DNA from: an uncultured Acidimicrobiia bacterium | GTDB lineage: Bacteria > Actinomycetota > Acidimicrobiia > Spongiisociales > JAENVV01 | Assembly (NCBI GenBank): GCA_965363765.1 | Contig: CBDTUI010000001.1 | Span: forward strand, 26,403 to 90,402 | Direction of reading: 5' to 3' | DNA: 64,000 nt | Shown here: in pieces, positions 5,598 through 56,013 of the stretch | How positions within the stretch are numbered: position 1 is the first letter of the stretch | How the letters are laid out: each line of letters opens with the position of its first letter | Notes under the pieces: generated by a model | Seen by the model: the letters and a program-made list of their open reading frames with translations, nothing else | Database searches by the model: none | What the model was told of the DNA's origin: nothing | Made by a program: the position numbers and the translations under genes

Positions 5598-6965
5598 ATG
5601 TCGACGCTGTGGGGCGGAGGTTTCGCCGAAGGTCCCGATGCGCTGCTGTGGGCCTATACGGTCGACACGGCAGACCGCCGGCTGATCTTCGACGACCTGC
5701 ATGGTTCGTGGGCCCACGTCGGGATGCTCGGCGAGCAGGGGATCATCAGTTCCGAAGAGGCCGCTCAGTTGCAGGGTGGCATTTTGGAGATCGTGGCCGA
5801 GGCGGAGGCGGGCGAGTTTGTTTTCCTGAATTCCGACGAAGATGTGCATTCGGCAACCGAACGGCGCCTGATCGAAAAGATCGGCGATGTGGGCCGCAAG
5901 GTGCACACGGGTCGATCCCGCAATGATCAGGTGGCTCTCGACCTTCGCCTCTATTTGGCCAGGGCGGGTCGTCAACAATTGCAGCACCTTGCCGCCATGG
6001 CCAGGGTCTTGGTTGACCAGGCCGAACGGGTGGGCGACCTCGTGGTCCCGTCATACACCCACCTCCAGCAAGCCCAGGCGGTGCCGTTGGCCCATCACCT
6101 GCTGGCGTATGCCGAAATGCTCCGGCGGGATGCCGAACGTATGCAAGCCGCCGTCTATCGGACCGAAGTGTCTCCGCTTGGAGCGAGTGCCTCGGGAGGA
6201 TCGAGCCTTCCTCTTGACCCTGCGGCCTCGGCCCGGCTTCTCGGTTGGAGTTGGCATTTCGCCAACTCGATGGACGCGGTTGGATCGCGCGACTTTGTCG
6301 CCGAGTACGTCTTTGTGTGCGCCCAGGCGATGGTCCACCTGTCGCGCCTCGCCGAAGAAGTCGTGCTGTGGGCGACTAGCGAATTCGGATGGGTGTCGTT
6401 CCCGGACACATTTACGACCGGATCGTCAGCGATGCCTCAGAAAAAGAACCCAGACGTTGCCGAACTCGTGCGGGGACGATCCGCAGGCGTGATCGGCGAT
6501 TTGTCGGCGATCATGGCCCTGCAAAAAGGGCTGCCACTCACGTACAACCGTGACCTGCAAGAAGATAAGCGGATCGCGTTCCACGCCGACGACGTGCTGG
6601 CCGGGTCGCTCCAGACGCTGGCAGCCATGCTGGCCACGGCCGTTTTCAACCCGCCACCCCCCAACCCGGCAGTCACCGCCCTCGACCTGGCCGAAGTGCT
6701 GGTCGGGCGGGGAGTGCCCTTCCGGACAGCACACGAGGCGATCGGTCAGCTACTCAAGAACCTGGCGGACGACGGGCGGACCCTGGCCGAAGCTACCGAT
6801 GCCGACCTTTCGACTGCCCATGATCAGTTCGAGGCCGAAGACGTCGCTCGGATTGATCCCGTTGCGTCGGTTCAACACCGGGTAACTCCGGGTGGCGGTT
6901 CGTTTCGTGAAGTTGCCCGGCAAATAACCCGCCTCCGGTCTTTGCTGGCAGACATCGGCAAGTAG
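5598..6965 (+). CDS. argH: Argininosuccinate lyase
   Basis: N-terminal LWGGGF. Fumarate-lyase signature GSSAMPQKKNPDVAE. 455 aa. Confidence 0.95.
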   Translation: MSTLWGGGFAEGPDALLWAYTVDTADRRLIFDDLHGSWAHVGMLGEQGIISSEEAAQLQGGILEIVAEAEAGEFVFLNSDEDVHSATERRLIEKIGDVGRKVHTGRSRNDQVALDLRLYLARAGRQQLQHLAAMARVLVDQAERVGDLVVPSYTHLQQAQAVPLAHHLLAYAEMLRRDAERMQAAVYRTEVSPLGASASGGSSLPLDPAASARLLGWSWHFANSMDAVGSRDFVAEYVFVCAQAMVHLSRLAEEVVLWATSEFGWVSFPDTFTTGSSAMPQKKNPDVAELVRGRSAGVIGDLSAIMALQKGLPLTYNRDLQEDKRIAFHADDVLAGSLQTLAAMLATAVFNPPPPNPAVTALDLAEVLVGRGVPFRTAHEAIGQLLKNLADDGRTLAEATDADLSTAHDQFEAEDVARIDPVASVQHRVTPGGGSFREVARQITRLRSLLADIGK

Positions 6966-7030
6966 AGTCAAGACCCGGTGCTGACGCAGCCGGGGACGCC
7001 GGCTTCGACAGGGGCATCGGCTGGAAGTGA

Positions 7031-7384
7031 GTGTCTTTGGACTGGTTACCGTGGTTGTTGTCGCTTGGGTTTGCGTTCCTCGGCTGGGCAATCGGTCGAT
7101 CAACGAACCGTTGGTTCGCTGCGAGCCGCGAAGCTACCCGTCGGATGGTCCTCGTCAAAGGGTTGAATTCGGCTCTTATTGCGGTGGCGTACTGGCTTAT
7201 CGTGTGGCAGGTCCTCAAACGCTTCGATCTGTTTGATCTCACCGCTGGGGTCGTCGTCGGACTGATGATGGTCCCGTTCGCCGCCCTTGGCTACATGTGG
7301 GCAGTCCGCCAACACGCCCAAAGTCTGTTTGGCCGGCGCCTCCCCCGCCGCCTCCGCCCCCGAATGTTCATACGACGTAGCTAG
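7031..7384 (+). CDS. Hypothetical small membrane protein (2-3 TM helices, Arg-rich tail)
   Basis: ORF with a GTG start, hydrophobic segments and a basic C-terminus. No recognisable family. Confidence 0.35.
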   Translation: MSLDWLPWLLSLGFAFLGWAIGRSTNRWFAASREATRRMVLVKGLNSALIAVAYWLIVWQVLKRFDLFDLTAGVVVGLMMVPFAALGYMWAVRQHAQSLFGRRLPRRLRPRMFIRRS

Positions 7385-7388
7385 GGGT

Positions 7389-8306
7389 TCAGATCAATGC
7401 GATGGTGGCAGCGAGGGTGAGGGCGCTGGCGACCGTTGATACGAGCACGGTGGTGGTCACGAAGTCTGGTTCGAGGTCGTGTTCGATCGCAATTAGCGCC
7501 GCAAAAACGGCGGCGGGCATGGCCGATTGCAGGATGGTGACGCCACCCGCAGTGCCGCCCAGCCCGATGAAGGCGGCAGCCAGGGCGGCAGCCGCCGGGG
7601 CGATCAGCAGGCGAAGGCCCGATGCCACCCATACTTCTTTTGCGAAGCGTGGTCGCTGCATGCTCGACAACTGAACCCCGAGCGTTACGAGCATGACGCC
7701 GATCATGGCGTCGGCCAGCAGGCCAATTGCCCGGTCGGCGAAGACAGGGAGCGTTAGATCGCCGGCGTTAAAGACGATTGCTAAGGGAAGGACCGCCACG
7801 GTGGGGGTGGTGAGTGCCTTGATGATCGCTTTGGACGGCGAGGCGGTCCGCCAGGTGGCTGCCGTCACCCCGATCATGAAGGCGGCGAAGTTGATGATGA
7901 GGAATGACACTCCGGCGAGTGGCAAGGCCTCTTCGCCGAACGCAAAGGAGACGATCGGTATGCCGAAATTGCCGACGTTCCCGTAAACAGCAACCAAAAC
8001 GACGGCCGCCGTCAGCGAGTAGCCCCACTTGAACAAGCGGCCGGCCGCCAGGCCGAGTAAGGCCACAACCGCGGTGGTTACGGTGATCACTATCGCCATC
8101 TGGGCCACCACGCCGGTCTCGATGTCGGCATCGCGGAGCAGATCAAAAAAGAACGCGGGGGCCAGAATGTAGTAGGCCACCTTGGCGAGTGGAGCGGGAT
8201 CTAAGCCCATCCGCCGACCAACGATGAGGCCGATCGTTGCTAATCCGAAGACGGGCAGCAGGATATCGATGAAGATTGCAGTGAGGTCGGTCACGTGGGC
8301 GGCCAT
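7389..8306 (-). CDS. AEC (auxin efflux carrier / malate permease-like) family transporter
   Basis: Polytopic membrane protein with the N-terminus MAAHVTDLTAIFIDILLPVFGLATIGLIVGRRMG typical of the AEC family. The start was moved to the internal ATG at 8306; the track ORF starts at 8570. Confidence 0.7.
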   Translation of the reverse strand: MAAHVTDLTAIFIDILLPVFGLATIGLIVGRRMGLDPAPLAKVAYYILAPAFFFDLLRDADIETGVVAQMAIVITVTTAVVALLGLAAGRLFKWGYSLTAAVVLVAVYGNVGNFGIPIVSFAFGEEALPLAGVSFLIINFAAFMIGVTAATWRTASPSKAIIKALTTPTVAVLPLAIVFNAGDLTLPVFADRAIGLLADAMIGVMLVTLGVQLSSMQRPRFAKEVWVASGLRLLIAPAAAALAAAFIGLGGTAGGVTILQSAMPAAVFAALIAIEHDLEPDFVTTTVLVSTVASALTLAATIALI

Positions 8307-8908: not shown

Positions 8909-10081
8909 GTGCTGCAAATCCCTGACGCCGAACGACGTAGGCGGTTAGCCCATCGCCACGGCCTTGTCGCGGGATTTGAGGCGGTTCCGTCGGTCGCCGA
9001 CGCCCTGGTCGGTCTCCATTCGAGTGATCCTGCCAGCGTCTACTTGTCGGTGTGGGCGCGTATGGATGGCGTCAAAATCGAGGACATCGAATCGGCTCTG
9101 TATGACACGGGAGAGCTGGTCCGGATGTGGGCGATGCGCCGGACCATGTTTGTCGTGCCCCCCGAACTCGGGCAGGTCATGTATCCCGCCGCCACCCGCG
9201 ACGTGGTGACTTCCGAGTGGCGCAAGCTGCGGCAATGGGTGGTCGCCAATCATGATTTTCCAGATCCCGACGCCTGGATGGAGCAGATCGCAGCAGGAGC
9301 CATCGAATTCCTATCGAGGATCGGGAGAAGTACCACTCGTGAACTGAAAGCGCAGGTCGATGGTCTGGATACGGCGCTCGTGGTCCAGCAAGGCACGCGA
9401 GCTCCCGTGACGATGAGCATGGCGAGTCGGCTGCTCATGCTCCTCGCGATGGACGGGCGGGTTGCCAAAGGACGGCCGGCGGGAACCTGGCGATCTTCCC
9501 AATACGAGTGGTTGTCGCTCGGTGAATGGCCAGGCGATTGGATCACGAACGGCACCCACGACGATCCCGAAGCCGAACTGCTCGCAAGGTGGCTGAGCGC
9601 ATACGGTCCGGGGACGTTTCAAGACCTCAAGTGGTGGACGGGTTGGACGGTTGCCAAGACCCGGCGGGCGCTGTCGGCAACCGGGGCCGTCGAGGTGGAA
9701 CTCGATGATGGCACCGGGTTCGTCCTTGGCGACGACCTGAACGCGACACCCGATCCGGGCGATTGGGTGGCCCTGCTACCCGGCCTCGACCCGAGCGTCA
9801 TGGGATGGAAGCAGCGAGACTGGTTCCTCGGTGACCTGGCCGGTCGACTCTTCGACCGAAACGGCAACGCTGGCCCGACCGTGTGGGCCAACGGGGAGAT
9901 AGTCGGTGGGTGGGCTCAGCGGCCAGATGGGACGATCGCGGTGGGTTTGCTCAAAGATGTACCGACCGCTGCCCGAAAAGCCATCGACCGTGAGGCTGAT
10001 GACCTGGCCGATTGGATTGGTCCGGTCGGGCTCCGGTTCCGCTTCCCCAGTCCCTACGAGAAGGAACTACGCGACAGCTAG
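8909..10081 (+). CDS. Winged-helix DNA-binding domain protein of the YcaQ/AlkZ-like (DUF1006) crosslink-repair glycosylase family
   Basis: 390 aa. The N-terminal architecture (LVGLHSSDPASVYLSVWAR...LYDTGELVRMWAMRRTMFVV) resembles the actinobacterial AlkZ/YcaQ family. Confidence 0.55.
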   Translation: MLQIPDAERRRRLAHRHGLVAGFEAVPSVADALVGLHSSDPASVYLSVWARMDGVKIEDIESALYDTGELVRMWAMRRTMFVVPPELGQVMYPAATRDVVTSEWRKLRQWVVANHDFPDPDAWMEQIAAGAIEFLSRIGRSTTRELKAQVDGLDTALVVQQGTRAPVTMSMASRLLMLLAMDGRVAKGRPAGTWRSSQYEWLSLGEWPGDWITNGTHDDPEAELLARWLSAYGPGTFQDLKWWTGWTVAKTRRALSATGAVEVELDDGTGFVLGDDLNATPDPGDWVALLPGLDPSVMGWKQRDWFLGDLAGRLFDRNGNAGPTVWANGEIVGGWAQRPDGTIAVGLLKDVPTAARKAIDREADDLADWIGPVGLRFRFPSPYEKELRDS

Positions 10082-10104
10082 GGTGAGATTCTGGACCCTG
10101 GAGG

Positions 10105-10968
10105 ATGATGTACGAGAAAGCCTTCAAGCAAATTCACGGCAAACAGATGGCCTATATCGACATCGGCGAAGGTGATCCAATCGTGTTTCTGCACGGCAAT
10201 CCAACCTCGTCGTTCCTATGGCGATCCGTCATGGCCGAACTCGAGGGACACGGACGCCTCATCGCCCCCGACCTCATCGGAATGGGCGATTCCGACAAAC
10301 TCGACGATCCGGGTCCAGATTCGTATACGTTTGTTGAGCACCGGCGTTTTCTTGACGAACTCCTCGACCAGCTAGATCTCGGTGACGCAGTGACGCTCGT
10401 CATCCACGACTGGGGTTCGGGTCTCGGCTTCGACTGGGCCAACCGCCACCGGACTCGGGTCAAGGCGATTGCCTACATGGAAGCCATCGTCAAGCCAGTC
10501 ACATGGGAGGAGTGGCCCGAGTCGGCTCGCCAATTCTTCCAGGGGCTTCGGTCAGAAGCCGGAGAATCGATGGTCCTCGTAAAGAACATGTTCGTTGAGA
10601 GGGTGCTGCCCAGCTCGATCCTCCGACCGCTCACCGACGAAGAGATGACCGAGTACCGAAGGCCCTACCTTGCGGCCGGGGAGTCACGTCGCCCCACGCT
10701 GACCTGGCCCCGACAGATTCCCATTGCAGGAACGCCTTCCGACGTGCACGACATCGTGGCGGCATATTCCCAGTGGTTGGCCGACTCGGATGTACCCAAG
10801 TACTTCTTCAACGCTGATCCCGGATCGATTCTCATCGGAGACCAGCGCGAGTTTTGTCGGAGTTGGCCAAATCAGCAGGAGATGACCGTGGCGGGCCTGC
10901 ACTTCATCCAAGAGGATTCCGGCGCCGAGATCGGGCGCGAGCTAGCCAGATGGCTTCCCAGGCTGTGA
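10105..10968 (+). CDS. dhaA: Haloalkane dehalogenase (HLD-II, DhaA/DmbA-like alpha/beta hydrolase)
   Basis: [27 protein letters not shown], nucleophile elbow [10 protein letters not shown]-terminal [21 protein letters not shown]. Colinear with Rhodococcus DhaA and Mycobacterium DmbA. Confidence 0.88.
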
Positions 10969-10990
10969 ACCGCGTTGGGAGCGGCGCTGT

Positions 10991-11617
10991 TTAGGTCTCA
11001 AACTCGATCACGTCGGGGTCTTCGTAAAGAGCCTGCATAAGCGCTCGATGGGCAGTCTGAGTCCCGATCACGTCGAAGTGGGCGATTAGCCGCTCGCGAT
11101 CCTTCGCTTCCTTGAAGGAGCGCACGCGTAGTCCAAGTTCCACAATCCGGTCGCGGAGAGCGTCGAGCTTCGGATGGCCGGCGGTTGTGACGATGCGATA
11201 GATCATATGGCCCGACCGTCGATCGATCATGACTTCCGCTTTGGGCAGAGCGACGAGCACAACCATCATGACGGCAAACGTGGCCATGCTGGCCAAGTAT
11301 TCGCCCGCTCCGATTCCCATGCCCAGTGCCGCTGCTACCCAGATCGTGGCGGCGGTCGTGATGCCGGAGACATTGCCGTTGTGCTTGAAGATGACCCCGC
11401 CACCGAGAAACCCGACGCCCGCCACTATTCCGGCCGCTACCCGGCCCGGGTCGTTGGTGCTGCCGGCTAAATCCTCTGAGATCATCGTGAAGAGGGTGGC
11501 GCCCAAGGTGATGAGCAGGATCGTGCGAAATCCGGCTGCTTTGTCGCGGTATTCCCGCTCGGCGCCGACGATTCCGCCGACGAGCACGGCCAGGGTGAGT
11601 TTGAGGGCGAGTTCCAT
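10991..11617 (-). CDS. mgtC: MgtC/SapB family membrane protein
   Basis: N-terminus MELALKLTLAVLVGGIVGAEREYRDKAAGFRT and a soluble C-terminal domain. Confidence 0.85.
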   Translation of the reverse strand: MELALKLTLAVLVGGIVGAEREYRDKAAGFRTILLITLGATLFTMISEDLAGSTNDPGRVAAGIVAGVGFLGGGVIFKHNGNVSGITTAATIWVAAALGMGIGAGEYLASMATFAVMMVVLVALPKAEVMIDRRSGHMIYRIVTTAGHPKLDALRDRIVELGLRVRSFKEAKDRERLIAHFDVIGTQTAHRALMQALYEDPDVIEFET

Positions 11618-27487: not shown

Positions 27488-29044
27488 CTAGCTCCTAAAG
27501 CTCTGGACCATTGAATTCTTGAGCTCTGACAGTTTGGGGGTGATCGACACGTGGTACGTGTGCGGATTGACGAGACGCCGCACTCCTGGGTCGAGTTGTT
27601 GGAGGTCTGCGATGCGCCGGCGACGGGCGTCCTCGATGCCGCCGAGGTCTCCCACTCGCTGGCCCTGATCGAGAACCCTGACCAGGAGCGGTTCGATGCG
27701 GCTCACTTCGGGCCCGGTGAGGGTTCGGCTGACACCCGGCTGGGTGGGATGGACCAACGTCACTGGAGCGGCGATCTTTTCACCGTTGAGCGAGACCAGG
27801 TCGGCTGTAGCGATGCCCCGCCGGTCATAGATGCGCCACAGGCTCTTGCGGCCCGGGTTCTGGATCTTGGCGGGTGAGTCGGAAATCTTGATGGCCGGCT
27901 GCCACTCACCGTCGCTGTCCTCGACGGCCACAGTTTTATAGACCCCGTCGAAGCTGGAATCCCCCTCTGAGGTGACCATCTTCGATCCAACTCCGTAGAC
28001 GAGTCGGCCCAGGACCCGGGCCGGGTCGACGTCGTATCTCGAAGCCTCTTCGAGGATCTGGTTTCGGATCTGCCAGATGGTCAGTTCGTCGAGTTGGCTC
28101 GACAAGACAATGCGGACGTTCTCGAACCCGGCCGCATTGAGCATCTGTGCCGATCGGACCGATAGATGGGCCAGGTCGCCCGAGTCGAGGCGGATGCCCT
28201 TTGGTTCGTGTCCCTTTGATCGAAGCTCCTCAAACACCTTGATGGCGTTAGGGACGCCAGAGTCAAGCGTGTCGACCGTATCAACCAGGAGCGACGTGTC
28301 GTCGGGATACAGGTCGGCGTAAGCCCGGAAGGCTTCAAGTTCCCCGCCGGCAACGGCCATGAAGACCTGGACCATCGAATGGGCGTGGGTGCCCCGCGAT
28401 TTAAACCCGAGGTCGAGGCTTAGCCCGACGTTGGAAGACGCCTCGGCTCCGCCAATCAGCGAGGCCCGCGACGCCGTGTTCGCACCCCAGGCAGGCGCCC
28501 GCCTCATACCAAATTCGAGCACTGATCCGCCGCTGGCCGCTTCCACAACCCGCGACGCCTTGCTGGCAATCAGCGAAGCAAAGTTGAGATGATTGAGAAG
28601 TGGCGTCTCCAGGATCTGAGCGATCGCCAGTGGCGCCTCGACTACGGCCAGGGGAGTATTGGGGTGAATGACCCGACCCTCCGGAATAGCCCGAAGGGAC
28701 ACGGAATTAAATGAACCGGCGTCGCCGAGCCAGTTGAGGAAGTCCGTTCGGAATTCGGGATCGCCATTTGAGGTCTGGAACGTGGCGAGCGCTTGCAACT
28801 CATCAGAGCCCACCTTGGTGTCAGTCATCCAGTCGAGCAGCGGACCTAGTCCGGCGGCGATCGCGTAACCAGCTTGGTGGGTGCCATAACTTGGGTAGGA
28901 CCGGAAGAAGTAATCGAATTGCGAACGTCGTTCGTGCAAGCCCATATGAAAATACAATTGGGCCATCGTCAGTTGGTAGTGGTCGGTGAAGAGGAATCCG
29001 TCGGCAAGCACAATTGCAATGTTACCGACGTAGGATCGCCCCAT
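27488..29044 (-). CDS. pncB: Nicotinate phosphoribosyltransferase
   Basis: N-terminal LFTDHYQLTMAQLYF motif. ~518 aa from the ATG at 29044; the track ORF extends to 29284. Confidence 0.85.
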   Translation of the reverse strand: MGRSYVGNIAIVLADGFLFTDHYQLTMAQLYFHMGLHERRSQFDYFFRSYPSYGTHQAGYAIAAGLGPLLDWMTDTKVGSDELQALATFQTSNGDPEFRTDFLNWLGDAGSFNSVSLRAIPEGRVIHPNTPLAVVEAPLAIAQILETPLLNHLNFASLIASKASRVVEAASGGSVLEFGMRRAPAWGANTASRASLIGGAEASSNVGLSLDLGFKSRGTHAHSMVQVFMAVAGGELEAFRAYADLYPDDTSLLVDTVDTLDSGVPNAIKVFEELRSKGHEPKGIRLDSGDLAHLSVRSAQMLNAAGFENVRIVLSSQLDELTIWQIRNQILEEASRYDVDPARVLGRLVYGVGSKMVTSEGDSSFDGVYKTVAVEDSDGEWQPAIKISDSPAKIQNPGRKSLWRIYDRRGIATADLVSLNGEKIAAPVTLVHPTQPGVSRTLTGPEVSRIEPLLVRVLDQGQRVGDLGGIEDARRRRIADLQQLDPGVRRLVNPHTYHVSITPKLSELKNSMVQSFRS

Positions 29045-29627
29045 GACAACGTACGGGCAGAACACGGCGCTGATCGTGGTTGATATGCAAAACGACTTCG
29101 CCGATCCGGGCGGCAGTTTGTCAGTGGCCGGCGGTGACGTACTCGTTGGCACCGTCAATGCCGAAGTGATCCGGGCCGCGTCAGCTGGCGCGTTCGTGGT
29201 GTACACCCAGGACTGGCATCCCAAATCCACCCCGCATTTCGCCAAGGATGGCGGCGTGTGGCCGGTGCATTGCGTGGCAAACACCTGGGGAGCTGCCTTT
29301 CATCCTCACCTTATCGTCGCCGGACCGACCGTCCGCAAAGGCACCAACGGCGAGGACGGATACTCGGGTTTCACCATGCGCGACCCAACCACCGAGACGA
29401 CGATCCCGACTGGGTTAGCCGAGCTCCTCAAAGCCCAAGGCGTCAAACGGGTCGTCATAGCGGGCCTCGCCCTCGACTACTGCGTCAAGGCTACGGCCCT
29501 TGATTCGGCCAACAACGGGTGGTTCACCACCGCCCCATCCTATCTAACCGCTGCCGTCAACCTTGAGCCCCAGGACGGCGAGGCAGCGGTCGAAGAGCTA
29601 CGGCAAGCAGGCATCGGGCTCGAGTAA
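29043..29627 (+). CDS. pncA: Nicotinamidase/pyrazinamidase (isochorismatase-like hydrolase)
   Basis: ALIVVDMQNDFADPGG. Catalytic Cys region (LALDYCV). Confidence 0.85.
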   Translation: MTTYGQNTALIVVDMQNDFADPGGSLSVAGGDVLVGTVNAEVIRAASAGAFVVYTQDWHPKSTPHFAKDGGVWPVHCVANTWGAAFHPHLIVAGPTVRKGTNGEDGYSGFTMRDPTTETTIPTGLAELLKAQGVKRVVIAGLALDYCVKATALDSANNGWFTTAPSYLTAAVNLEPQDGEAAVEELRQAGIGLE

Positions 29628-29905
29628 CCGTTATTCGACCACCGGTTCATGGTTCGATACTGACGGTGGACGGCCACTCTTTGAATTGCCAACGTTGGCC
29701 GATCGAACTGGCGACTGGCCGAGGTCGCGAACCGAGCGATACGACCTCCATCTGCCGAAGGGTTTGGAGCAGGTCGCAATGTCAATGTCCGAGGCGGCCG
29801 CGTCCCTCAGTTAACGCGGACGATAACGGAGAAAGTGAGCTCTTACGCTAGTTCCGAGTGCTCGGAATAGTTCTTCTCATCTCTCGACCGCTGTAGCCTC
29901 CCCCG

Positions 29906-31654
29906 CTAGCCACGGTCCTCTGCGGTGACGGCGTCGTACAGGCTCTCGACGATACCGTTGCCGCGCCGGATCGTGATCGGTACGTGAGTATCGAGCTTCT
30001 CGTTTGACTCAGCAGATTTGATCACGAAAACCGTGACCAGGGCGTCTCCCGGAATATTCAGTGCCGGGTCGAGCAAGTCGAAGCCCGGATACTGAGTGCA
30101 GTCGTATGGAGTCATCGAGGCTAAACACAATGTGCGGGCCAGGTCGTCGAGTAGCACTGGCTCCGCATTCCGCGTGAGTCCGGTTGTCACAGAGTGTCTC
30201 GGTTTGATCGCGAGAAACGGAGAATATCGACCTACGCCCCACATTGGGTGGTCCCAAATCGGTGTGGCCTCGAGGGTGCCGGGGGCCTGATACCCATTGG
30301 GCTTCCCATGATCGCTCTTGAGGACGATCACTGCTTCGTCATATACGCCCAGTGCTTTCAGTTTGTCCAGGAATTCGGCCATTTCTGCCAATGCGCACTT
30401 CGTTATAGCATCGAATCCGTCCACGTTTTGGTTTTCTGCGAACCACTCTGGTTCGTGTGCGCGGTACTCGCACGCCTCATCAAATTGCAAGGGGAAATGA
30501 GTATGCGTGAAGTGGAGAAAGTGAGCAGATGGCTGAACCCCACCGACTTCCAGGTTTCTGACGTATCGATCGAAGTCTAGGATCGATAGAGCGAGGTTAT
30601 GGCTCCACTGGGGCGACAGAGACCCGCTAAGCCGGTTTTTCAATTCGGACTCTGCCTGGTCGGCGGGATGGTCGGCGCTCACGAGGAATCCCTGCATCGC
30701 CGACTTGACCCGGCCGGTCGGCACAGACACCGGAGTGAGCGTTCTCGCAAATGAAAGGTCCAGGAGGGTCGATGCAAGTTCTTGACGCATCGTCGTTTCG
30801 GCGAGTCGGCGACCTGAGTTAAGTCCGGTACCGTAGGCATAGTACGTTGTCACCTCGTACCCGTTTGCCCCGAGGACGTTCGTTAGAAGTGTGGGGCCGC
30901 CAAGTGTCCACGCTTGTTCTTGCGTCTTGAATCGGCTTTTAGAGCTCTGGTTTCCGCTGAGCTCACCAAAGATCGATGCCAAGGTTCCGGGTGAGCTTGC
31001 AGCTGCGTTGTCGAAGTATACGAAGCCTCTCAGTTCGTTTTCTAAGTCCGGGTCGGCCGATAAAACTCGGTTTACGGAGGACCTAGATAAACCGTCGAAA
31101 CTGAGTACGAAGATGTTGCTGGTCTCCGAGGCAACTGCATGTCGGTCAGGTTGAGTCCGAGCTTGGTACTCACTAAAAACCAATAGCGAGACGTTGAGGA
31201 TCAAAAGGATTCCCAGGAAACTGTTGACGTAGTGCCCTCTTGCTGACCTCGAAAGTGCAAACAGTACGACTGCAACGATGGTGCTGGCTAGCAGAGGTCC
31301 GATGGCGACACCGAGGTTGCTGGGGTCGGTTAGGCCGTCGTTGGCTGCAACTGGGAACACGAGACTTGTTGTCAGGACGAAGAACGACAGGTAGTGAATT
31401 GTTCGATTGAAAAGTGATCCGGTACGCGAGCCTTTTGCGAGCCGCCGGATTATGAGCAGGAAGAGAAGAACATACGAGGCGAGTCCAAATAGGCCGACTA
31501 ATGACGCTGGAGGAATGGTCGAGATCGGGACATCGTTTTCGCTAGCTATGAGCGCCGGCGTAAATATGAAGACCAGGAACGGGAGCAGGAAGAACGGAAA
31601 CAACGGTTCGGCCAGTCGACCCCGAGGAGACTCGCTAACAGTTTCTTTAGCCAT
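29906..31654 (-). CDS. Sulfatase / phosphoglycerol-transferase (LTA-synthase/EptA-like, alkaline-phosphatase superfamily) membrane protein
   Basis: 4-5 N-terminal TM helices plus a periplasmic AP-superfamily domain (VLSFDGLSRS...KSDHG). The GC content here is visibly lower than in flanking DNA. Confidence 0.6.
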   Translation of the reverse strand: MAKETVSESPRGRLAEPLFPFFLLPFLVFIFTPALIASENDVPISTIPPASLVGLFGLASYVLLFLLIIRRLAKGSRTGSLFNRTIHYLSFFVLTTSLVFPVAANDGLTDPSNLGVAIGPLLASTIVAVVLFALSRSARGHYVNSFLGILLILNVSLLVFSEYQARTQPDRHAVASETSNIFVLSFDGLSRSSVNRVLSADPDLENELRGFVYFDNAAASSPGTLASIFGELSGNQSSKSRFKTQEQAWTLGGPTLLTNVLGANGYEVTTYYAYGTGLNSGRRLAETTMRQELASTLLDLSFARTLTPVSVPTGRVKSAMQGFLVSADHPADQAESELKNRLSGSLSPQWSHNLALSILDFDRYVRNLEVGGVQPSAHFLHFTHTHFPLQFDEACEYRAHEPEWFAENQNVDGFDAITKCALAEMAEFLDKLKALGVYDEAVIVLKSDHGKPNGYQAPGTLEATPIWDHPMWGVGRYSPFLAIKPRHSVTTGLTRNAEPVLLDDLARTLCLASMTPYDCTQYPGFDLLDPALNIPGDALVTVFVIKSAESNEKLDTHVPITIRRGNGIVESLYDAVTAEDRG

Positions 31655-31700
31655 GGCTATGTTCGTCCCATTCGGTAAATCGTTGCTAGAGACCCAACTC

Positions 31701-32726
31701 CTACCAGCCTGTCAAAATGACCTTGCCTGCTTCGGCAGACCGGGCAGTCTCGAAAGCGGCCTTCCATTGCTCGAACGTGAAGTGGTGGGTGATTACGGGA
31801 CTGATGTCGAGGCCCCCTTGCAGAAGAGCCGTCATCTGGTACCAGGTCTCAAACATGCGACGGCCATAGATGCCTTGCATGCTCAGACCCTTGAAGATGA
31901 CATCGTTCCAGTCTATAGGTGCTTCAGAAGGCGGGATTCCCAGCAAGGCAACCTTGCCTCCGTGGTTCATGACATGGAGCATGTCGCGAAGCGCATGCGG
32001 ATTGCCCGACATCTCCATGCCGACGTCAAACCCTTCGATCATGCCGAGTTCACGCATAACGCTTTCGAGGCTTTCTTGGTCGGCTCGGACAGCCCGTTCG
32101 ATCCCCATCGCTCTCGCCAGCTTGAGCCGATAGTCGTTGACGTCGGTGATAACCACATGGCGGACTCCGACTCGGTTGGCGATCGCGCCCGCCATGAGTC
32201 CGATCGGCCCGGCTCCGGTGATGAGGACGTCCTCGCCGACCAGTGGGAAGCTGAGGGCGGTGTGGGTGGCGTTCCCGAGGGGGTCGAGGATTGTGGCAAT
32301 GTCATCGTCGATGTCGTCGGGTATCGGGAACACGTTGATGGCCGGAATCATGACGAATTCGGCAAACGCTCCTGCCCGGTCGACTCCCACCCCCACTGTG
32401 TTCCGGCAATGATGGCGCTGCCCGGCCCGGCAGTTGCGGCAGGTCCCGCAGGTGATGTGCCCTTCGCCCGATACCCGCTGCCCGACGCTGATGCCGGTCA
32501 CTTCCGACCCGACGGCGGCAGCCGTCCCCATGTATTCGTGACCTACGACCATCCCGACGGGGATCGTTGAAGCGGCCCATTCGTCCCAGGCTTCAATATG
32601 CAGATCAGTTCCACAGATCGACGCCTGGCTGACCTCGATAAGCACGTCGTTTGGCCCGTGTTCGGGCATCGGGACGTCAGTCAACTCGAGACCCGGGCCA
32701 GCCGTGGGTTTGATGATGGCCTTCAC
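31701..32726 (-). CDS. tdh: L-threonine 3-dehydrogenase (Zn-dependent)
   Basis: Near-colinear with E. coli Tdh: [40 protein letters not shown]. Confidence 0.95.
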
Positions 32727-33910
32727 GCCACGACCCCCAACTGGCGTCCGACCTCGATGAACGCCCCTATTGACGCGTCGAGGTGATCCTTGGTGTGAGC
32801 CGCAGACATCTGCGTACGGATCCTGGCTTCGCCACGCGGAACCACCGGAAACGAAAAAGCGGTTACGTAGATGCCCTTTGCCAACATGCCGGTGGCCATC
32901 TCACCAGCCAGCTTGGCGTCACCGAGCATCACGGGAATAATCGGGTGGTCGGCTCCCGCCAACCTAAAGCCGGCATCTTCCATCGCCGACCGAAAGTACG
33001 CCCCGTTATCTGCCAATTGGTGGCGCAATGCTGCCCCGTCTTCGATGAGGTCGAGAGCTCTCAACGAGGTGGCAACGATGGTCGGGGCCAATGAGTTAGA
33101 AAAGAGATAGGGCCGCGACCGTTGCCGGAGCCAGCCGACGATCTCTTTTGGGCCGCTTGTGTAGCCACCGGAGGCGCCACCGAGGGCTTTGCCGAGGGTT
33201 CCGGTTCGGATCGTTACTCGATCTTCGACACCCCAATAGTCCGGAGTACCGCCACCGTGCTCACCAACAAACCCGACGGCATGCGAGTCATCGACGAAGA
33301 CCATGGCATCGTATTTCTCCGCAAGGTCGCAGATGCCTGGAAGGTTGGCGACAATGCCGTCCATCGAAAAGACGCCATCAGTGGCGACCAGCCGGAAGCG
33401 AGCACCCTGGGCAGCTTTGAGCTGGGCCTCAAGGTCGTTTAGATCGTTGTTGGCGTAGCGATAGCGCTTGGCTTTGCAGAGTCGCACTCCGTCGATGATC
33501 GAGGCGTGATTGAGGGCATCGGAAATGATGGCGTCCTCTTCGCTGAGCAAAGTTTCGAACAGACCGGTGTTGGCGTCAAAGCAGGACGAGTAGAGAATCG
33601 TGTCTTGCGTCTTGAGAAACGCAGAGAGTCGCGTTTCAAGGTCGGTGTGGATGGTCTGGGTCCCGCAGATGAAGCGAACCGACGCCATCCCGTAGCCGTA
33701 TGTATCGAGGGCGGCATGCGCCGATTCGATGAGGCGAGCGTCGTTGGCGAGCCCAAGGTAATTGTTGGCGCATAGGTTGATGACCTCGCTGCCGTCGTCG
33801 AGGGTCACGGTGGCGCCCTGGGGTGAGGTCATCAGTCGTTCATGTTTTTCGAGACCATCGGCACGAACCGCGGCTAGTTCGTCGGTCAGGTAATCAGTGA
33901 AACTGCTCAT
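32723..33910 (-). CDS. kbl: Glycine C-acetyltransferase (2-amino-3-ketobutyrate CoA ligase)
   Basis: PLP-dependent class II aminotransferase. N-terminal [10 protein letters not shown] motif. The stop overlaps the tdh start. Confidence 0.9.
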
Positions 33911-33919
33911 GCCGACAGG

Positions 33920-34273
33920 CTAGGCGTCCGCGGGCGGGGTGGTCTTTGGCTCCGGTCGGAGCTGGTCAATCCGATCGTCAAGATCAAGCAGGCGTTGGGC
34001 CTCGGTGAGTTGGCGCGCTTCGAGAGCGGCGATGTCTCCCTGAGCGGTTAGCTCGCTCATGCGAAGTTCGTGCCGGTAACCGAGCAAGTAACGAGCAGCC
34101 ACGGTCCCAGCTCCGATAGCGGCGACAACGGCGGCCATATTGCTGGTCAGAATCTCAGTTAAGTCCACATTGGTGACCGCAAAGATCGGGATCATCAAGG
34201 CCATCATCGGAATGAGGTACGCCCAATTCCAGCCGCCTGATTTCGGATCTTCGTCTGCCATATCACTAAGCAT
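33920..34273 (-). CDS. Hypothetical small membrane protein
   Basis: One TM cluster (YLIPMMALMIPIFAV...AAVVAAIGAG) followed by a coiled-coil tail. Confidence 0.4.
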   Translation of the reverse strand: MLSDMADEDPKSGGWNWAYLIPMMALMIPIFAVTNVDLTEILTSNMAAVVAAIGAGTVAARYLLGYRHELRMSELTAQGDIAALEARQLTEAQRLLDLDDRIDQLRPEPKTTPPADA

Positions 34274-34289
34274 AGAAGAGCTTGTCCTA

Positions 34290-34499
34290 GGCGTGCGGAG
34301 CTAGACACAGCACAAAGCATCTGATCAGGCCCCAAACGCGAAAACTGAGGAGCAGCTCAGTTAGCTCGCGAGCGCTTGCTCGTTTACACTCGCGAACCGC
34401 GCACCCATCCGGGTGTTCTCGCACTTCACGGTGCACACATCCTGCTCCACCACCGTGGTGGGGCCGTTCGCTTAAGCGAATGTCCATAGGAGGTATAAA
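34290..34499 (+). promoter_or_regulatory. rpsF 5' leader with multiple palindromes (candidate S6:S18 autoregulatory leader)
   Basis: GCACCCatccGGGTGT at 34401-34418. CCACCACCGTGGTGG at 34447-34461. The perfect palindrome TTCGCTTAAGCGAA at 34467-34480 lies immediately before the RBS AGGAGG. Confidence 0.35.
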
Positions 34500-34790
34500 T
34501 TGCATAACTATGAAGTCATGACGATTCATCGTCCTGACCTCCAAGAGCCAGACGCCCAGGGCAAGGTCAAAGAGATCGCGGCCCTGTTGGAAGCTCGAGG
34601 CGCTGAGGTATCCGAACAGGACTTCTGGGGCAAACGTCGCTTTGCCTACGAGATCAACCACATGAACGAGGGCTACTACTCGCTTGTGACGTTCAAAACC
34701 GACAACCCGGTGGCGATCGATGAACTCGACCGGGCCCTTCGTCTATCTGACGCAGTCATCCGACACAAGGTCATGCGACTAGAAGACTGA
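34500..34790 (+). CDS. rpsF: 30S ribosomal protein S6
   Basis: MHNYEVMTIHRPD...GKRRFAYEI. TTG start 6 nt after AGGAGG. Confidence 0.92.
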   Translation: MHNYEVMTIHRPDLQEPDAQGKVKEIAALLEARGAEVSEQDFWGKRRFAYEINHMNEGYYSLVTFKTDNPVAIDELDRALRLSDAVIRHKVMRLED

Positions 34791-52837: not shown

Positions 52838-54598
52838 CTACATCCGGTCGGGGACTTCTATCCCGAGGAGATCGAGTAGGACCGTGAGGGTCCGCGCGGT
52901 TAGTTCAATCAGACCGAGCCAGGAAGCCTTGCGAGTTAGATCCGTCTCGCTGAGAATGTGGCACTCCTCGTAGAAGCGGTTGAACTGCTGGGCGAGTTCG
53001 TAGGCGAACTCGGCGATGTGATTCGGAGCGCGAGTGGTCCAGGCCCGATCGATCACGTCGGGAGAGCGAAGTAACTCGAGCATGAGGCGCCGTTCTGCTT
53101 CGACTGTCGGTTCCACGAGGGAACCGGGTGTCCAACCGGCCTCGGCCGCCTCCCGCAGGATTGACTGGGTTCGCACGACCGCGTATTGGAGGTACGGGCC
53201 GGTCTTGCCGACCAGACTTGTGAATCGTTCGAGGTCGAACAGATAGTCGGATTGTCGGTGGTTAGACAACTCACCGAACTTGAGGGCAGCCAGACCGACC
53301 AACCGCGCGATTTCGGTCCGCTCCTCGTCGGTGTAGTCACTGATCTTCGATTCTGCCAGGCGGGCGAGACCTGCTTTGGTCACCATGTTGATCAGATCAC
53401 GCAGCTTGACCACGCCACCCTTGCGGGTCTGGAAGGGTTTCCCGTCTGGTCCGTTCATCGTTCCGAACTTGATGTGCTCCAGTGCGGCGTCCGGTGGCAC
53501 GATGCCAGCCTGGCGGCCAACCCGAAACACCTGTTCGAAGTGGAGCGCTTGACGGGCATCGACGACATACAGGACTTCTTGTCGATCGAGTTCCTCCATC
53601 CGCATCTGCAACGTGGCAACATCGGTCGTCGAATACAGGTAGGCACCGTCGCCTTTGAGCATGATGAGCGGCGGTATGTCCATCTTGTCGGTCGGTTCGG
53701 CGACGTCGACTACCAACGCCCCAGCCGACTCCTTAGCGAGTCCTTGGGACTTCAGCAGGTTGATCAGTGGGTCAACCAATTCATGCACCGTCGCCTCTCC
53801 GTACCAGAGGTCGAAGTCCACTCCGAGGTCATGGAAGTCTGCTCGTTGTGACGTTTGGGAAACGTCAACGAGGTGCTGCCAGAGTGCCCGATATCCGGGC
53901 CGGCCCTGTTGGAGTTCGACGGTGGCCAGTCGGGCCGCCTCAGCGATGTCCGGATCGTCTTTAGCTCGCCCGGATATGTCCGGGTAGATCTCCTGGAGGT
54001 CGGTCATGCTGACCGGCGAATCGGCGGGATAGCCGTATGTGATGGCAGGGTCGAAGTAGGGCAGGTCAGGCATTCGCTCCCTGACGCCGACGATGACCTG
54101 TCCCATTTGGGTGCCCCAGTCACCGAAGTGGGCGTCGCCGAGAACGTTATGTCCGACGAACTTTCCGATGCGGGTCAGCGAGTCGCCAATGATGGTGGCT
54201 CGTAGGTGGCCAACATGCATGTCTTTGGCGACGTTGGGGCCGCCGTAGTCGACCAGCACCCGTTTGGGATCGGCGACGGGGTCGATGCCGAGTCGGGCAG
54301 TCTGCATCGTCGAGGCGAACCCGATGAGGGCTTGGTCGGTCAGCCTGATGTTGATGAATCCAGGTCCGGCGAGTGTCAGCTCGGCAAATTGAGGACGGTT
54401 GGACAGTGACTCGACGACGGTCTGAGCGATTTCACGCGGATTGCGGCCAGCTTGTTTGGCGGCCGGCAGCGCACCGTTGCATTGGAACTGCCCGAGATCG
54501 GGTCGCGATGACACCACTACGGCACCGAACGAGGAGTCAAGGCCCTGGCTGGCAAAAGCCTGGCCAAAGATTTCAGAGAGTTGAATCAGGACGTTCAT
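52838..54598 (-). CDS. argS: Arginine--tRNA ligase
   Basis: Class I aaRS. HIGH-type motif HVGHLRATIIGD. C-terminal DALR anticodon-binding domain. 586 aa. Confidence 0.92.
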   Translation of the reverse strand: MNVLIQLSEIFGQAFASQGLDSSFGAVVVSSRPDLGQFQCNGALPAAKQAGRNPREIAQTVVESLSNRPQFAELTLAGPGFINIRLTDQALIGFASTMQTARLGIDPVADPKRVLVDYGGPNVAKDMHVGHLRATIIGDSLTRIGKFVGHNVLGDAHFGDWGTQMGQVIVGVRERMPDLPYFDPAITYGYPADSPVSMTDLQEIYPDISGRAKDDPDIAEAARLATVELQQGRPGYRALWQHLVDVSQTSQRADFHDLGVDFDLWYGEATVHELVDPLINLLKSQGLAKESAGALVVDVAEPTDKMDIPPLIMLKGDGAYLYSTTDVATLQMRMEELDRQEVLYVVDARQALHFEQVFRVGRQAGIVPPDAALEHIKFGTMNGPDGKPFQTRKGGVVKLRDLINMVTKAGLARLAESKISDYTDEERTEIARLVGLAALKFGELSNHRQSDYLFDLERFTSLVGKTGPYLQYAVVRTQSILREAAEAGWTPGSLVEPTVEAERRLMLELLRSPDVIDRAWTTRAPNHIAEFAYELAQQFNRFYEECHILSETDLTRKASWLGLIELTARTLTVLLDLLGIEVPDRM

Positions 54599-54646
54599 GG
54601 CTATCGGTAAGGATAGGCCGGATAACCTGACAGTCGGTCTGTCCCG

Positions 54647-55159
54647 CTAACCGTTGGTGACGTTGAAGCGGAGGTTGCCGGAAGAATCCGAAACGATGGC
54701 CTCAAAACTACATTTGGCGCCAGAGCTGGTCATCGTCTTCTCGGCGATCGGTTCGGTCGCATCCTCGGAGTCGAAGACCTTGAACACCACAGGCAGGCCG
54801 CCGTCAACGGTGAGATTCTGGCCTCGGTCGGTTCTGACAGGCCCGATGGTCGCCTTCGAGGTCGTGGCTGTCAGCCAGTAGCCGTCGGAACCAGCGATGA
54901 CCGTGATGTCACAACTGGCGTGCCTGGTTGAGATGAGCCCGGCTTCATCGGTGTTGCCAGTCATCTGGATTAGGCCGAAACCAAGCATGACGACGACGGC
55001 CGCGCCTGCGGCGGCCATCACCAGATTGTTGAATCGGTTTCGGCGAGGCTGAAAAGGGACGACTTTGGTTTGCACAAATTTGTGGTCTGGGACTTCGATG
55101 AGGCGCGCTTTGGCGGCCAGATGGCCGCGTAGGCGCTCCTCAAAGTCGGATTCGTTCAC
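54647..55159 (-). CDS. Putative anti-sigma factor (single-pass membrane protein co-translated with the ECF sigma factor)
   Basis: The start overlaps the sigma stop (ATGA). Domain order is ~55 aa cytoplasmic N-terminus, one TM helix (LVMAAAGAAVVVMLGFGLI), then a ~95 aa extracytoplasmic domain. No canonical zinc anti-sigma domain. Confidence 0.5.
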   Translation of the reverse strand: MNESDFEERLRGHLAAKARLIEVPDHKFVQTKVVPFQPRRNRFNNLVMAAAGAAVVVMLGFGLIQMTGNTDEAGLISTRHASCDITVIAGSDGYWLTATTSKATIGPVRTDRGQNLTVDGGLPVVFKVFDSEDATEPIAEKTMTSSGAKCSFEAIVSDSSGNLRFNVTNG

Positions 55160-55707
55160 GTTGCTTCTCCAAGAGATTTCTGGAGTGCGGCGACACCCCG
55201 ATGAATTCGGCTTTTAACGGTCCCCTTGGGAATCCCGAGCGAGTCGGAGATTTCCTCCATGGACCAATCCATGTAGTACCGCAAGACGACCGGGGCCCGA
55301 TACTTTTCGGGTAGTTCTGCCAGGGCCGCGTCGAGCTTTGGCTCGAACTGCGGATCTTCAATATGGGGTTTGTCCGTGACGTAGATCGATGGCAGTTCTC
55401 GTTTTGACCGACGAAGTTTGGTGCGTGCCCAGTTCATGCCAACCCGGTAAACCCAGCCTCCCGGGTTGTCATAGGTCTGCACGTCTGACCAGCGCTGGTA
55501 GGCGCGGGTCATGGCTTCATCGGCCGCCTCGATGCCCAACTCCCGGTTACCAAGAACGATCACCAGGGTGCGCACCAAATGAGGACGTTTCGCGTTGTAG
55601 AACTCTTCAAAAGAGTTCAGCGAGATGCCCTGTTCGACTGTCACGGTTCCCTCCATACGGGGAGCAGACGCATCGTTTGGCTTGTTGGTTCCCAGATTCC
55701 GTTCCAT
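55156..55707 (-). CDS. ECF subfamily RNA polymerase sigma-70 factor
   Basis: Sigma70_r2 (FEEFYNAKRPHLVRTL...YQRW). Sigma70_r4 (LPEKYRAPVVLRYYMDWSMEEISDSLGIPKGTVKSRIHRG). The start is set to ATG 55707; the track ORF runs into the repeat array. Confidence 0.85.
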   Translation of the reverse strand: MERNLGTNKPNDASAPRMEGTVTVEQGISLNSFEEFYNAKRPHLVRTLVIVLGNRELGIEAADEAMTRAYQRWSDVQTYDNPGGWVYRVGMNWARTKLRRSKRELPSIYVTDKPHIEDPQFEPKLDAALAELPEKYRAPVVLRYYMDWSMEEISDSLGIPKGTVKSRIHRGVAALQKSLGEAT

Positions 55708-55758
55708 CTCGTTCCCAGGATAGGTCTCCCCAACCTGGCTCCAAACCCACCATTCCCC

Positions 55759-55947
55759 GAACCCAGGGTTCAACCCAGGGTTCCAGCGCCCGAATACGGG
55801 TGCTGAGGCCCCAAGAACAACCCAGGGTTGAACCCAGGGTTCCTACCCCCGTTTTTCGGGGGGTTACAGCCCCGAGAACAACCCTGGGTTGGTGCGTGAA
55901 CCCTGGGTTCTAGCGCCCGGGTATGGGTGCTGGAGCCCCAAGAACAG
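55759..55947. repeat. Tandem array of three copies of a 61-67 bp palindrome-containing repeat (same family as the solo copy at 12138-12210)
   Basis: Copy 1 is 55759-55819, copy 2 is 55820-55880 and copy 3 is 55881-55947. Each starts with the near-palindromes (G)AACCCAGGGTT(C/G)AACCCAGGGTTC and ends CCCCAAGAACA. Copy 2 has a diverged middle (CCCCCGTTTTTCGGGGGG hairpin). Confidence 0.85.
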
Positions 55948-56013
55948 CGCGCGGGTGACAAAAGGTGGGCTGCGGTGGGCTGGGTCGGGACGACGCAGCT
56001 ACCCTTCGGCCTG

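Follow-up and report, generated by a model that had tools for sequence, protein, structure and literature searches.

The 64-kb stretch of bacterial DNA analyzed here (contig CBDTUI010000001.1; "the window" below means this whole stretch of 64,000 nucleotides) carries a gene, X, for a 582-residue membrane-anchored enzyme of the alkaline phosphatase (AP) superfamily. X occupies positions 29906–31654 on the minus strand, with its ATG at 31654 and its TAG at 29906–29908. On balance, we lean toward X being a metal-dependent phospholipid-headgroup transferase that uses a threonine nucleophile and decorates a surface glycopolymer. This reading is preferred because of the architecture and fold of the protein, its invariant residues, and the contexts of its homologs, which occur with Wzx and glycosyltransferase (GT) genes and with TagF-like genes. 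From the same evidence we infer the transferase chemistry, the lipid donor, and the glycan acceptor. As a type, membrane-anchored headgroup transferases of the AP superfamily are well known. The clade of X, with its own motif set and partners, fits none of the named families compared here.

In the proposed mechanism, five N-terminal helices would anchor X in the cytoplasmic membrane, with the catalytic domain facing outward. Thr224 would be activated by a metal whose ligands are D187, D448, and H449 (step 1). The threonine would then attack a membrane phospholipid at its phosphodiester, releasing diacylglycerol (step 2). A covalent intermediate between the enzyme and the phospho-headgroup, which could be phosphoglycerol or phosphoethanolamine (PEtN), would form (step 3). 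Finally, the headgroup would be handed to a hydroxyl of an acceptor outside the cytoplasm, for which a surface glycopolymer is the likeliest candidate (step 4). GacH, BcsG, and the LtaS and Ept enzymes act in this manner.

Architecture and predicted active site of X

A preliminary description of this region, made from the sequence alone, had called the product a polytopic membrane protein with an AP-superfamily ectodomain, and both parts of that statement hold. The Pfam Sulfatase family (PF00884) matches aa 202–509 with a score of 33.5 bits, above its cut-off of 25. The scan otherwise returned DUF229 below threshold and nothing more. PF00884 also takes in LtaS, OpgB, and Ept-type transferases, so an above-threshold score does not imply sulfatase activity. 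An AlphaFold2 (AF2) model built on 20 homologs (pLDDT 87.3, pTM 0.86) places an alpha/beta domain after five transmembrane (TM) helices. The TM helices, at aa 19–39, 49–72, 77–98, 118–135, and 140–165, make up an N-terminal membrane module (31160–31600, minus strand) that is also delimited by DSSP. Lysine and arginine residues are confined to loops 2 and 4, with zero in loops 1 and 3. From this positive-inside pattern, the topology is N-in, C-out, with the catalytic domain (aa 176–582; 29909–31129, minus strand) outside. The present analysis establishes this architecture and topology. Two cysteine pairs, C395/C420 and C510/C519, are invariant among 20 close homologs; in a set of 74 diverse members, the columns at least 90% conserved include C510 and C519 but not C395 and C420. 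To judge from the alignments, the conserved cysteines are consistent with an oxidizing, extracytoplasmic location of the ectodomain.

Foldseek returned PbgA/YejM (6xlp, E = 1.4e-10) as the best full-length match to the model, followed by MCR-1 (9nww) and EptA (5fgn), all of which join five TM helices to an AP-like domain. A comparison of individual structures gave values of 24.2 for an S1 sulfatase (7ebp), 23.7 for PbgA, 23.3 for a phosphonate monoester hydrolase, 23.1 for LtaP, 22.5 for LtaS, 21.3 for EptC, 20.7 for EptA, 18.7 for BcsG, and 14.8 for GacH. The modeled fold assigns X to the superfamily, not to any subfamily.

The predicted catalytic residue set is intact. D187, F211, T224, S227, H381, H386, P388, D448, H449, and G450 are invariant both in the 20 close homologs and in the 74 diverse members, which are 21–47% identical to X. 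On the strength of this invariance, T224 is the predicted nucleophile, and D187, D448, and H449 are predicted metal ligands. The T224 codon (30983–30985, minus strand, as are all codons given here; position checked) lies in the motif S-S-P-G-T-L-A-S, and T224 opens helix 224–233 in the AF2 model as read by DSSP. D187 (31094–31096; codon checked) closes the first beta-strand, in V-L-S-F-D-G. The histidines of the H381-F-T-H-T-H386 motif (30497–30514) are predicted phosphate or metal binders, and the K446-S-D448-H449-G450 motif (30305–30319) holds the predicted metal-binding Asp-His pair.

Related enzymes have published sites of the same kind: E255, T300, D475, and H476 in LtaS; E488, T530, D711, and H712 in GacH; and a Thr nucleophile, Glu, Asp-His, and His in EptA and MCR-1 (PMC7576196; bioRxiv 10.1101/337519). 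In LtaS, Glu255, Thr300, Asp475, and His476 form the Mn site, and His347, Trp354, and Arg356 form the glycerol-phosphate pocket (PMC7576196; 10.1101/337519). The catalytic threonine is T285 in MCR-1 and T280 in EptA. The invariant residue types of X appear to match these published sites. D187 would be placed where LtaS has E255 and MCR-1 has E246. The spacing H381-x4-H386-x-P388, read by eye, seems to resemble H390-x4-H395-G-P of MCR-1.

X is outside the LtaS, EptA/MCR, GacH, PbgA, and S1-sulfatase families and belongs to an unnamed one. It shares with LtaS and LtaP the five N-terminal TM helices, the extracellular AP-fold domain, and, by prediction, the Thr nucleophile, acidic ligand, and Asp-His metal pair; LtaP is also the sole Protein Data Bank (PDB) sequence match of the X family, over the DH motif. 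However, identity is 13–16%, the ligand after beta-strand 1 is Asp in X and Glu in LtaS, and the X family has H-F-T-H-T-H-F-P in place of the H-x6-W-x-R glycerol-phosphate pocket motif. The X gene is also accessory rather than core. The preliminary suggestion of a lipoteichoic acid (LTA) synthase is not borne out, as the NCBIfam LtaS equivalog model (NF053595) gives 19.2 bits where 970 are required, and its match is limited to aa 377–449. Its other suggestion, a sulfatase, fails on the active site. The Pfam match is above threshold, and X has an S-x-P-x-T string where sulfatases have C/S-x-P-x-R. In X, however, S220-S-P-G-T224 carries an invariant Thr at the Arg position. S220, at the Cys/Ser position, is not conserved across the 74 members (it is Gly in P0022), and X is anchored by five TM helices rather than soluble or secreted. 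A formylglycine-type S1 sulfatase was excluded on the two motif positions.

The PEtN transferases EptA, EptC, MCR-1, and BcsG resemble X in their five-TM anchor and periplasmic domain, in their Thr nucleophile, and in their phospholipid donor, the last two being putative for X. Conserved cysteine pairs are a further common feature, and a weak hhalign alignment places T224 on T285 of MCR-1. BcsG and O-antigen PEtN transferases modify polysaccharides, which is the acceptor class proposed for X. In contrast, the E468 and H478 ligands of MCR-1 have no evident counterpart after the DH pair of X, and the host of X is probably a monoderm without lipid A. Pfam found no EptA_B_N domain in X, and hhalign to MCR-1 reached only E = 0.13; membership in the EptA/MCR family was rejected. 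PbgA/YejM, the closest full-length structure in its combination of five-TM module and AP-like domain, is an essential lipopolysaccharide (LPS)-sensing protein of Gram-negative bacteria with a partly degenerate site. X differs in keeping the complete invariant catalytic set and in being accessory. Pfam found no DUF3413 in X, and the homologs of its neighbors are named Acidimicrobiia, so this family was set aside as well.

GacH and SccH, the glycerol-phosphate transferases of streptococcal rhamnose polysaccharide, lie in surface-polysaccharide clusters, as some X homologs do. They are the best functional analogy for the homologs on contigs L003, L004, and L005, described below. GacH decorates its glycan with a headgroup from phosphatidylglycerol via a Thr intermediate, and it has 11 TM segments and an eGacH domain (10.1101/337519). 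X has 5 TM helices and belongs to a separate clade, and the GacH family was rejected for it on the eleven-TM count.

An unnamed family and its genomic company

X is a full-length member of its own family, with the invariant pattern D...P-x-T-x-x-S...H-x4-H-x-P...D-H-G. A word-index search found 22 relatives at 31–46% identity, all unnamed. The idea of a very rare 22-member family was overturned by an exhaustive profile search, which returned hundreds of clusters. At E <= 1e-30 it picked up 254 representatives, each standing for a 50%-identity cluster, so that the family numbers 254 clusters or more; at E <= 1e-10 the figure rose to 1600. The majority of matches span profile positions ~15–577, corresponding to the TM module plus the ectodomain. 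None of the sampled members has a name or an NCBIfam match; all are "hypothetical protein". The family falls into three length classes (~580, ~700, and ~820 aa) and is spread over contigs of 38–66% GC.

Some members are fusions. An N-terminal YidC/Oxa1 domain (PF02096) is joined to the X module in 10 of 163 representatives (~6%): P0189, P0225, P0233, P0243, P0247, P0270, P0271, P0274, P0278, and P0279. Pfam confirmed the fusion in all five representatives tested. The fused YidC/Oxa1 domains are mutually just 26–45% identical. A literature search found no paper on a fusion of YidC/Oxa1 to a five-TM-plus-AP module.

The genomic company of the homologs is established for several contigs. L003 and L005 have a common layout of GT4, GT4, GT1, Wzx, nitroreductase, pyruvyl transferase, and methyltransferase genes, followed by the homolog. 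L004 and L091 share another, with methyltransferase, GT2, and GT4 genes, the homolog, and then GT4, Wzx, FkbM methyltransferase, and CMP-sugar synthase genes. Contigs L101 and L108, of ~43% GC, each carry a TagF-like CDP-glycerol glycerophosphotransferase gene (Glyphos_transf; 6635–7774 and 6859–8004, respectively) that overlaps the homolog at its start. Their TagF-like products share 55% identity, and methyltransferase and nucleotidyl-transferase genes lie upstream. L101 also has a separate YidC gene (9935–11098), which overlaps the homolog at its 3' end. A nucleotide-sugar epimerase/dehydratase gene lies immediately upstream of the homolog on L089. The L109 homolog has a Legionella-like context, with PagP and Legionella_OMP neighbors. 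A 76-aa fragment upstream of the L107 homolog was considered as RmlD-like and dropped, as Pfam gave no support. No conserved cassette boundary was found downstream of X-family genes, in that no common motif or hairpin recurs across loci.

Some side observations concern these contexts. Methyltransferase genes lie near the homolog in 7 of ~12 contexts. The class-I methyltransferase-like genes adjoining the homologs on L002 (10160–10894) and L109 (6491–7867) form a related pair (29% identity, E = 2e-29); the L002 host is actinobacterial-looking at 61% GC and the L109 host Legionella-like at 43% GC. L101 also encodes a 716-aa paralogous Sulfatase-domain protein.

A larger proposal may be built on these associations, and we offer it as a speculation that is unlikely as it stands. 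The X family would be a scattered, uncharacterized headgroup-transferase clade that works as a module with the YidC/Oxa1 domain, either fused or, as on L101, encoded by a translationally coupled gene, and with TagF-like or Wzx pathways. Together these would make up a system of a new type for decorating glycopolymers. Its YidC-like part would have a non-insertion role, such as supply or scrambling of the lipid donor or clearance of diacylglycerol.

An accessory gene in a variable slot

X is the final gene of a co-directional string, hyp117-kbl-tdh-X, that is probably co-transcribed. A 46-nt spacer (31655–31700, minus strand) separates the tdh stop codon from the start of X. On this side lie genes for Lon, DnaB, rplI, rpsR, ssb, rpsF, hyp117, kbl, and tdh, and on the other side pncA, pncB, and a VWA protein gene. 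As the preliminary description stated and the open reading frame list agrees, X is the single gene in its interval, on the minus strand and convergent with pncA. Both flanks are conserved. pncA (29043–29627, plus strand; Pfam Isochorismatase) encodes a nicotinamidase with homologs 75–95% identical, and tdh (31701–32726, minus strand) encodes a threonine dehydrogenase 88% identical at the amino-acid level on the related contig L086. The gene heading the string, hyp117 (33920–34273, minus strand), encodes a 117-aa predicted membrane protein that is 79% identical on L086 and has no Pfam family.

A variable slot without counterpart in relatives runs from the 3' end of pncA to the tdh stop codon (29580–31702, by blastn). 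L086 resembles the window in PncA (75%), Tdh (88%), Kbl (87%), and Hyp117 (79%), and it is collinear by blastn only at window positions 29026–29579 and 31703–34234. In place of X, its slot contains genes for a 365-aa hypothetical protein, a cupredoxin-like protein, and a histidine kinase, all three unrelated to X. On a second contig, L088 (PncB 91% and PncA 82% identical), homology stops at window position 29615 and is followed by unrelated small genes and a TetR regulator; X is absent there. Since L086 and L088 carry other genes there, the pncA-tdh slot is variable and X is an accessory gene. The synteny comparison that the preliminary description had proposed showed pncA and tdh-kbl collinear in L086, with X missing from the slot. 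A scan of contigs based on Tdh was uninformative, as Tdh is too conserved: none of 80 loci had pncA, pncB, or rpsF nearby, and the best matches were 69%-identical Proteobacteria. Further out on L086 (1–9900), pncA is preceded not by pncB but by an ABC exporter and a sulfotransferase/glycosyltransferase/nonribosomal peptide synthetase-module cluster. Together with the variable slot, this indicates that both sides of pncA are prone to rearrangement in this lineage.

X also stands out in composition, although only modestly. GC content is 55.0% in the interval 29850–31700 and 55.1% in the gene, against a window mean of 60.1% with a standard deviation of 1.5% over gene-sized (1750-nt) windows. X is the lowest-GC gene-sized stretch of the 64 kb; 0.8% of sliding windows are equally low, and all of them overlap X. 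The preliminary description was right about the low GC of the gene and overstated the contrast, as the flanks are at 60–62% rather than ~65%, a step of ~5 and not ~10 points. The two AT-rich strings that it quoted were found at 30426–30444 and 30482–30505. GC at third codon positions (GC3) is 0.621 in X, the lowest value among the 23 genes that encode 330 aa or more, with all others between 0.665 and 0.755; GC at first positions is 0.59 against ~0.66 elsewhere. Because GC3 is also low, the drop is more than an amino-acid effect. Synonymous-codon divergence from the pooled genes, taken over a composition-matched multinomial null, is highest in X (z = 3.7), with the runner-up gene at z = 3.4. 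Tetranucleotide distance gives z = 2.5–2.9. GC, codon usage, and tetranucleotides, the checks named in the preliminary description, thus all show a deviation at X that is real and modest in size. The tetranucleotide value is tied with a region at 54–57 kb, where positions 54200–57000 reach z = 2.7–2.9 without a GC drop. That region includes the genes at 54647–55773 (minus strand) and 55927–58203 (plus strand).

Part of the GC deviation may be intrinsic to the family. In all four contexts examined, homolog genes are at 54–57% GC in hosts of 58–62% GC, so they too lie below their hosts. This bears on the origin of X. The preliminary description spoke of a horizontally acquired insertion, and the accessory status and deviant composition agree with that, whereas an insertion as such is not shown. 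Of the features of a genomic island, X combines deviant composition with absence from the same site in relatives; there is no integrase at X, no tRNA in the 64 kb, and no flanking or target repeat beyond short ones at chance level, and the genes around it have housekeeping functions.

The alternative is that X is an old resident of the rpsF/hyp117-kbl-tdh neighborhood, whose low GC is a family property and which was lost or displaced in some relatives. We regard this as possible but the less probable history. It is favored by the lack of integrase, tRNA, and flanking repeat, by the GC of the homologs in all four contexts, and by the small lead of X in codon divergence over the next gene. The L086 contig ends within hyp117, so a copy of X beside rpsF is possible there. 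The closest homolog of X, P0002 (46% identical) on contig L106, also speaks for residency. It directly adjoins the rpsF leader and is followed by a hyp117 fragment, and nt 1–191 of L106 are 79.5% identical to window positions 34547–34356; the comparison covered L106 1–2300 and window 33978–34547. However, the L106 slot, between rpsF and hyp117, differs from the slot of X and lies ~2.4 kb away in the same neighborhood. A leader piece of at least 25 nt is duplicated there, once on either side of the homolog (83–107 and 2093–2117, 25 nt, 96% identical), and resembles an insertion scar. L106 is a short contig of low coverage (2.7x) and may be a chimera. Two readings of its arrangement are open to us: a separate insertion event or the movement of a cassette, on the one hand, and a long-standing resident that was later rearranged, on the other. 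Against residency, no homolog more than 47% identical to X was found among 5.8 billion proteins, though PncA relatives at 73–95% identity were sampled. The family is found on contigs from 38% to 66% GC, and GC3, which is less tied to amino-acid content, is also lowest in X. We rate an accessory and horizontally mobile gene as more likely than an old resident, and a recent horizontal transfer as a candidate history. A protein identical to X (P0001) is present on three public contigs.

Two noncoding elements lie nearby. The 278-nt convergent region between pncA and X (29628–29905) contains a palindromic hairpin, TTCCGAGTGCTCGGAA, at 29851–29868, which the preliminary description had linked to a T-rich run downstream of X. 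The hairpin exists, and its T-rich tail lies on the plus strand, in the sense of pncA, 225 nt past the pncA stop; on the strand of X, the hairpin has no T-run behind it. Three terminator-like sites were counted here, against 1.9 +/- 1.6 expected from shuffled sequence, which is no enrichment. The hairpin was therefore rejected as a convincing terminator of X. The rpsF-hyp117 intergenic leader (34274–34499), which is ~80% identical at the nucleotide level in L106, includes a hairpin, CCACCACGGTGGTGG, and is a possible S6-type ribosomal-protein leader. A gathering-threshold scan of the whole window found no Rfam families.

Competing functions and what X would mean

Several observations weigh against a headgroup transferase acting on a glycopolymer. 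X is an orphan at the present locus: no homolog of the glycosyltransferase, Wzx, TagF, YidC, or methyltransferase partners occurs within the 64-kb window. Contexts are uninformative on L002, L095, L098, L100, L106, L107, and L109, about half of all. Sequence similarity to characterized transferases is insignificant. The hhalign comparison of the family profile with MCR-1, in which T224 pairs with Thr285, reaches E = 0.13 over 37 columns (the MCR-1 query is identical to PDB 9nww_B at 540 of 541 residues). A PDB sequence-profile search with the family alignment returned nothing significant, with LtaP (4uop) best at E = 0.025 over the DH motif only. Finally, the glycerol-phosphate pattern of LtaS is not evident in X, where HFTHTHFP stands after the conserved His instead.

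These points leave room for a membrane-anchored hydrolase, be it a phosphatase, phosphodiesterase, phospholipase-C-like enzyme, or sulfatase, serving for example to scavenge phosphate or sulfate. The Pfam match is named Sulfatase, X has no glycan genes nearby, and Thr nucleophiles are also used by NPP and PafA-type hydrolases. YejM, a five-TM relative, has phosphatase activity in vitro (PMC7576196). We nonetheless consider a hydrolase unlikely. The sulfatase variant is ruled out by the missing C/S-x-P-x-R motif, with its invariant Thr at the Arg position and unconserved S220. The five-TM module, present family-wide from about residue 15, is typical of enzymes that draw a lipid substrate from the membrane, and homologs recur in glycopolymer biosynthesis clusters. 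A polymerizing LTA-type synthase, an analog of LtaS that would extend poly(glycerol phosphate) from an anchoring glycolipid, is improbable to a further degree. X does share the layout of five TM helices and an ectodomain with LtaS (10.1101/337519), and its best, though weak, sequence matches are LtaP and the NCBIfam LtaS model. Yet that model scores 19 bits against its cut-off of 970, and X is accessory and absent at the site in close relatives, unlike a core envelope polymer synthase. A homolog also occurs in the Legionella-like, Gram-negative context of L109, and the neighborhood of X has no LtaA or YpfP-type anchor genes. Least probable, and by our estimate very much so, is a non-catalytic lipid-binding sensor or regulator like PbgA/YejM that merely retains the AP fold. 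The full catalytic set, with its Asp-His pair and two histidines, is invariant over the 74 divergent members, which points to catalysis as the function under selection. X and PbgA are just 13–16% identical. The host, to judge from the names of PncA relatives (Acidimicrobiia metagenome-assembled genomes, at 65–69% identity), is probably a monoderm actinobacterium without LPS.

If X is a headgroup transferase, it would give an Acidimicrobiia-like actinobacterium a strain-variable means of attaching a charged group, through phosphate, to a polymer of its surface. In better-studied bacteria, such surface changes affect phage adsorption, metal binding, and sensitivity to cationic peptides. The link to antimicrobial-peptide resistance raised in the preliminary description is not supported by the present analysis. 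For the window alone, X would be an ordinary accessory envelope gene, unsurprising to a specialist. The wider value is in the family rather than the locus, as it is a coherent, wholly unannotated clade that appears catalytically intact from its sequences. The YidC fusion and the coupling to TagF and Wzx are the only elements of wider potential. The recurrent partners of the family, namely Wzx/GT clusters, TagF-like genes, methyltransferases, and YidC fusions, make it testable.

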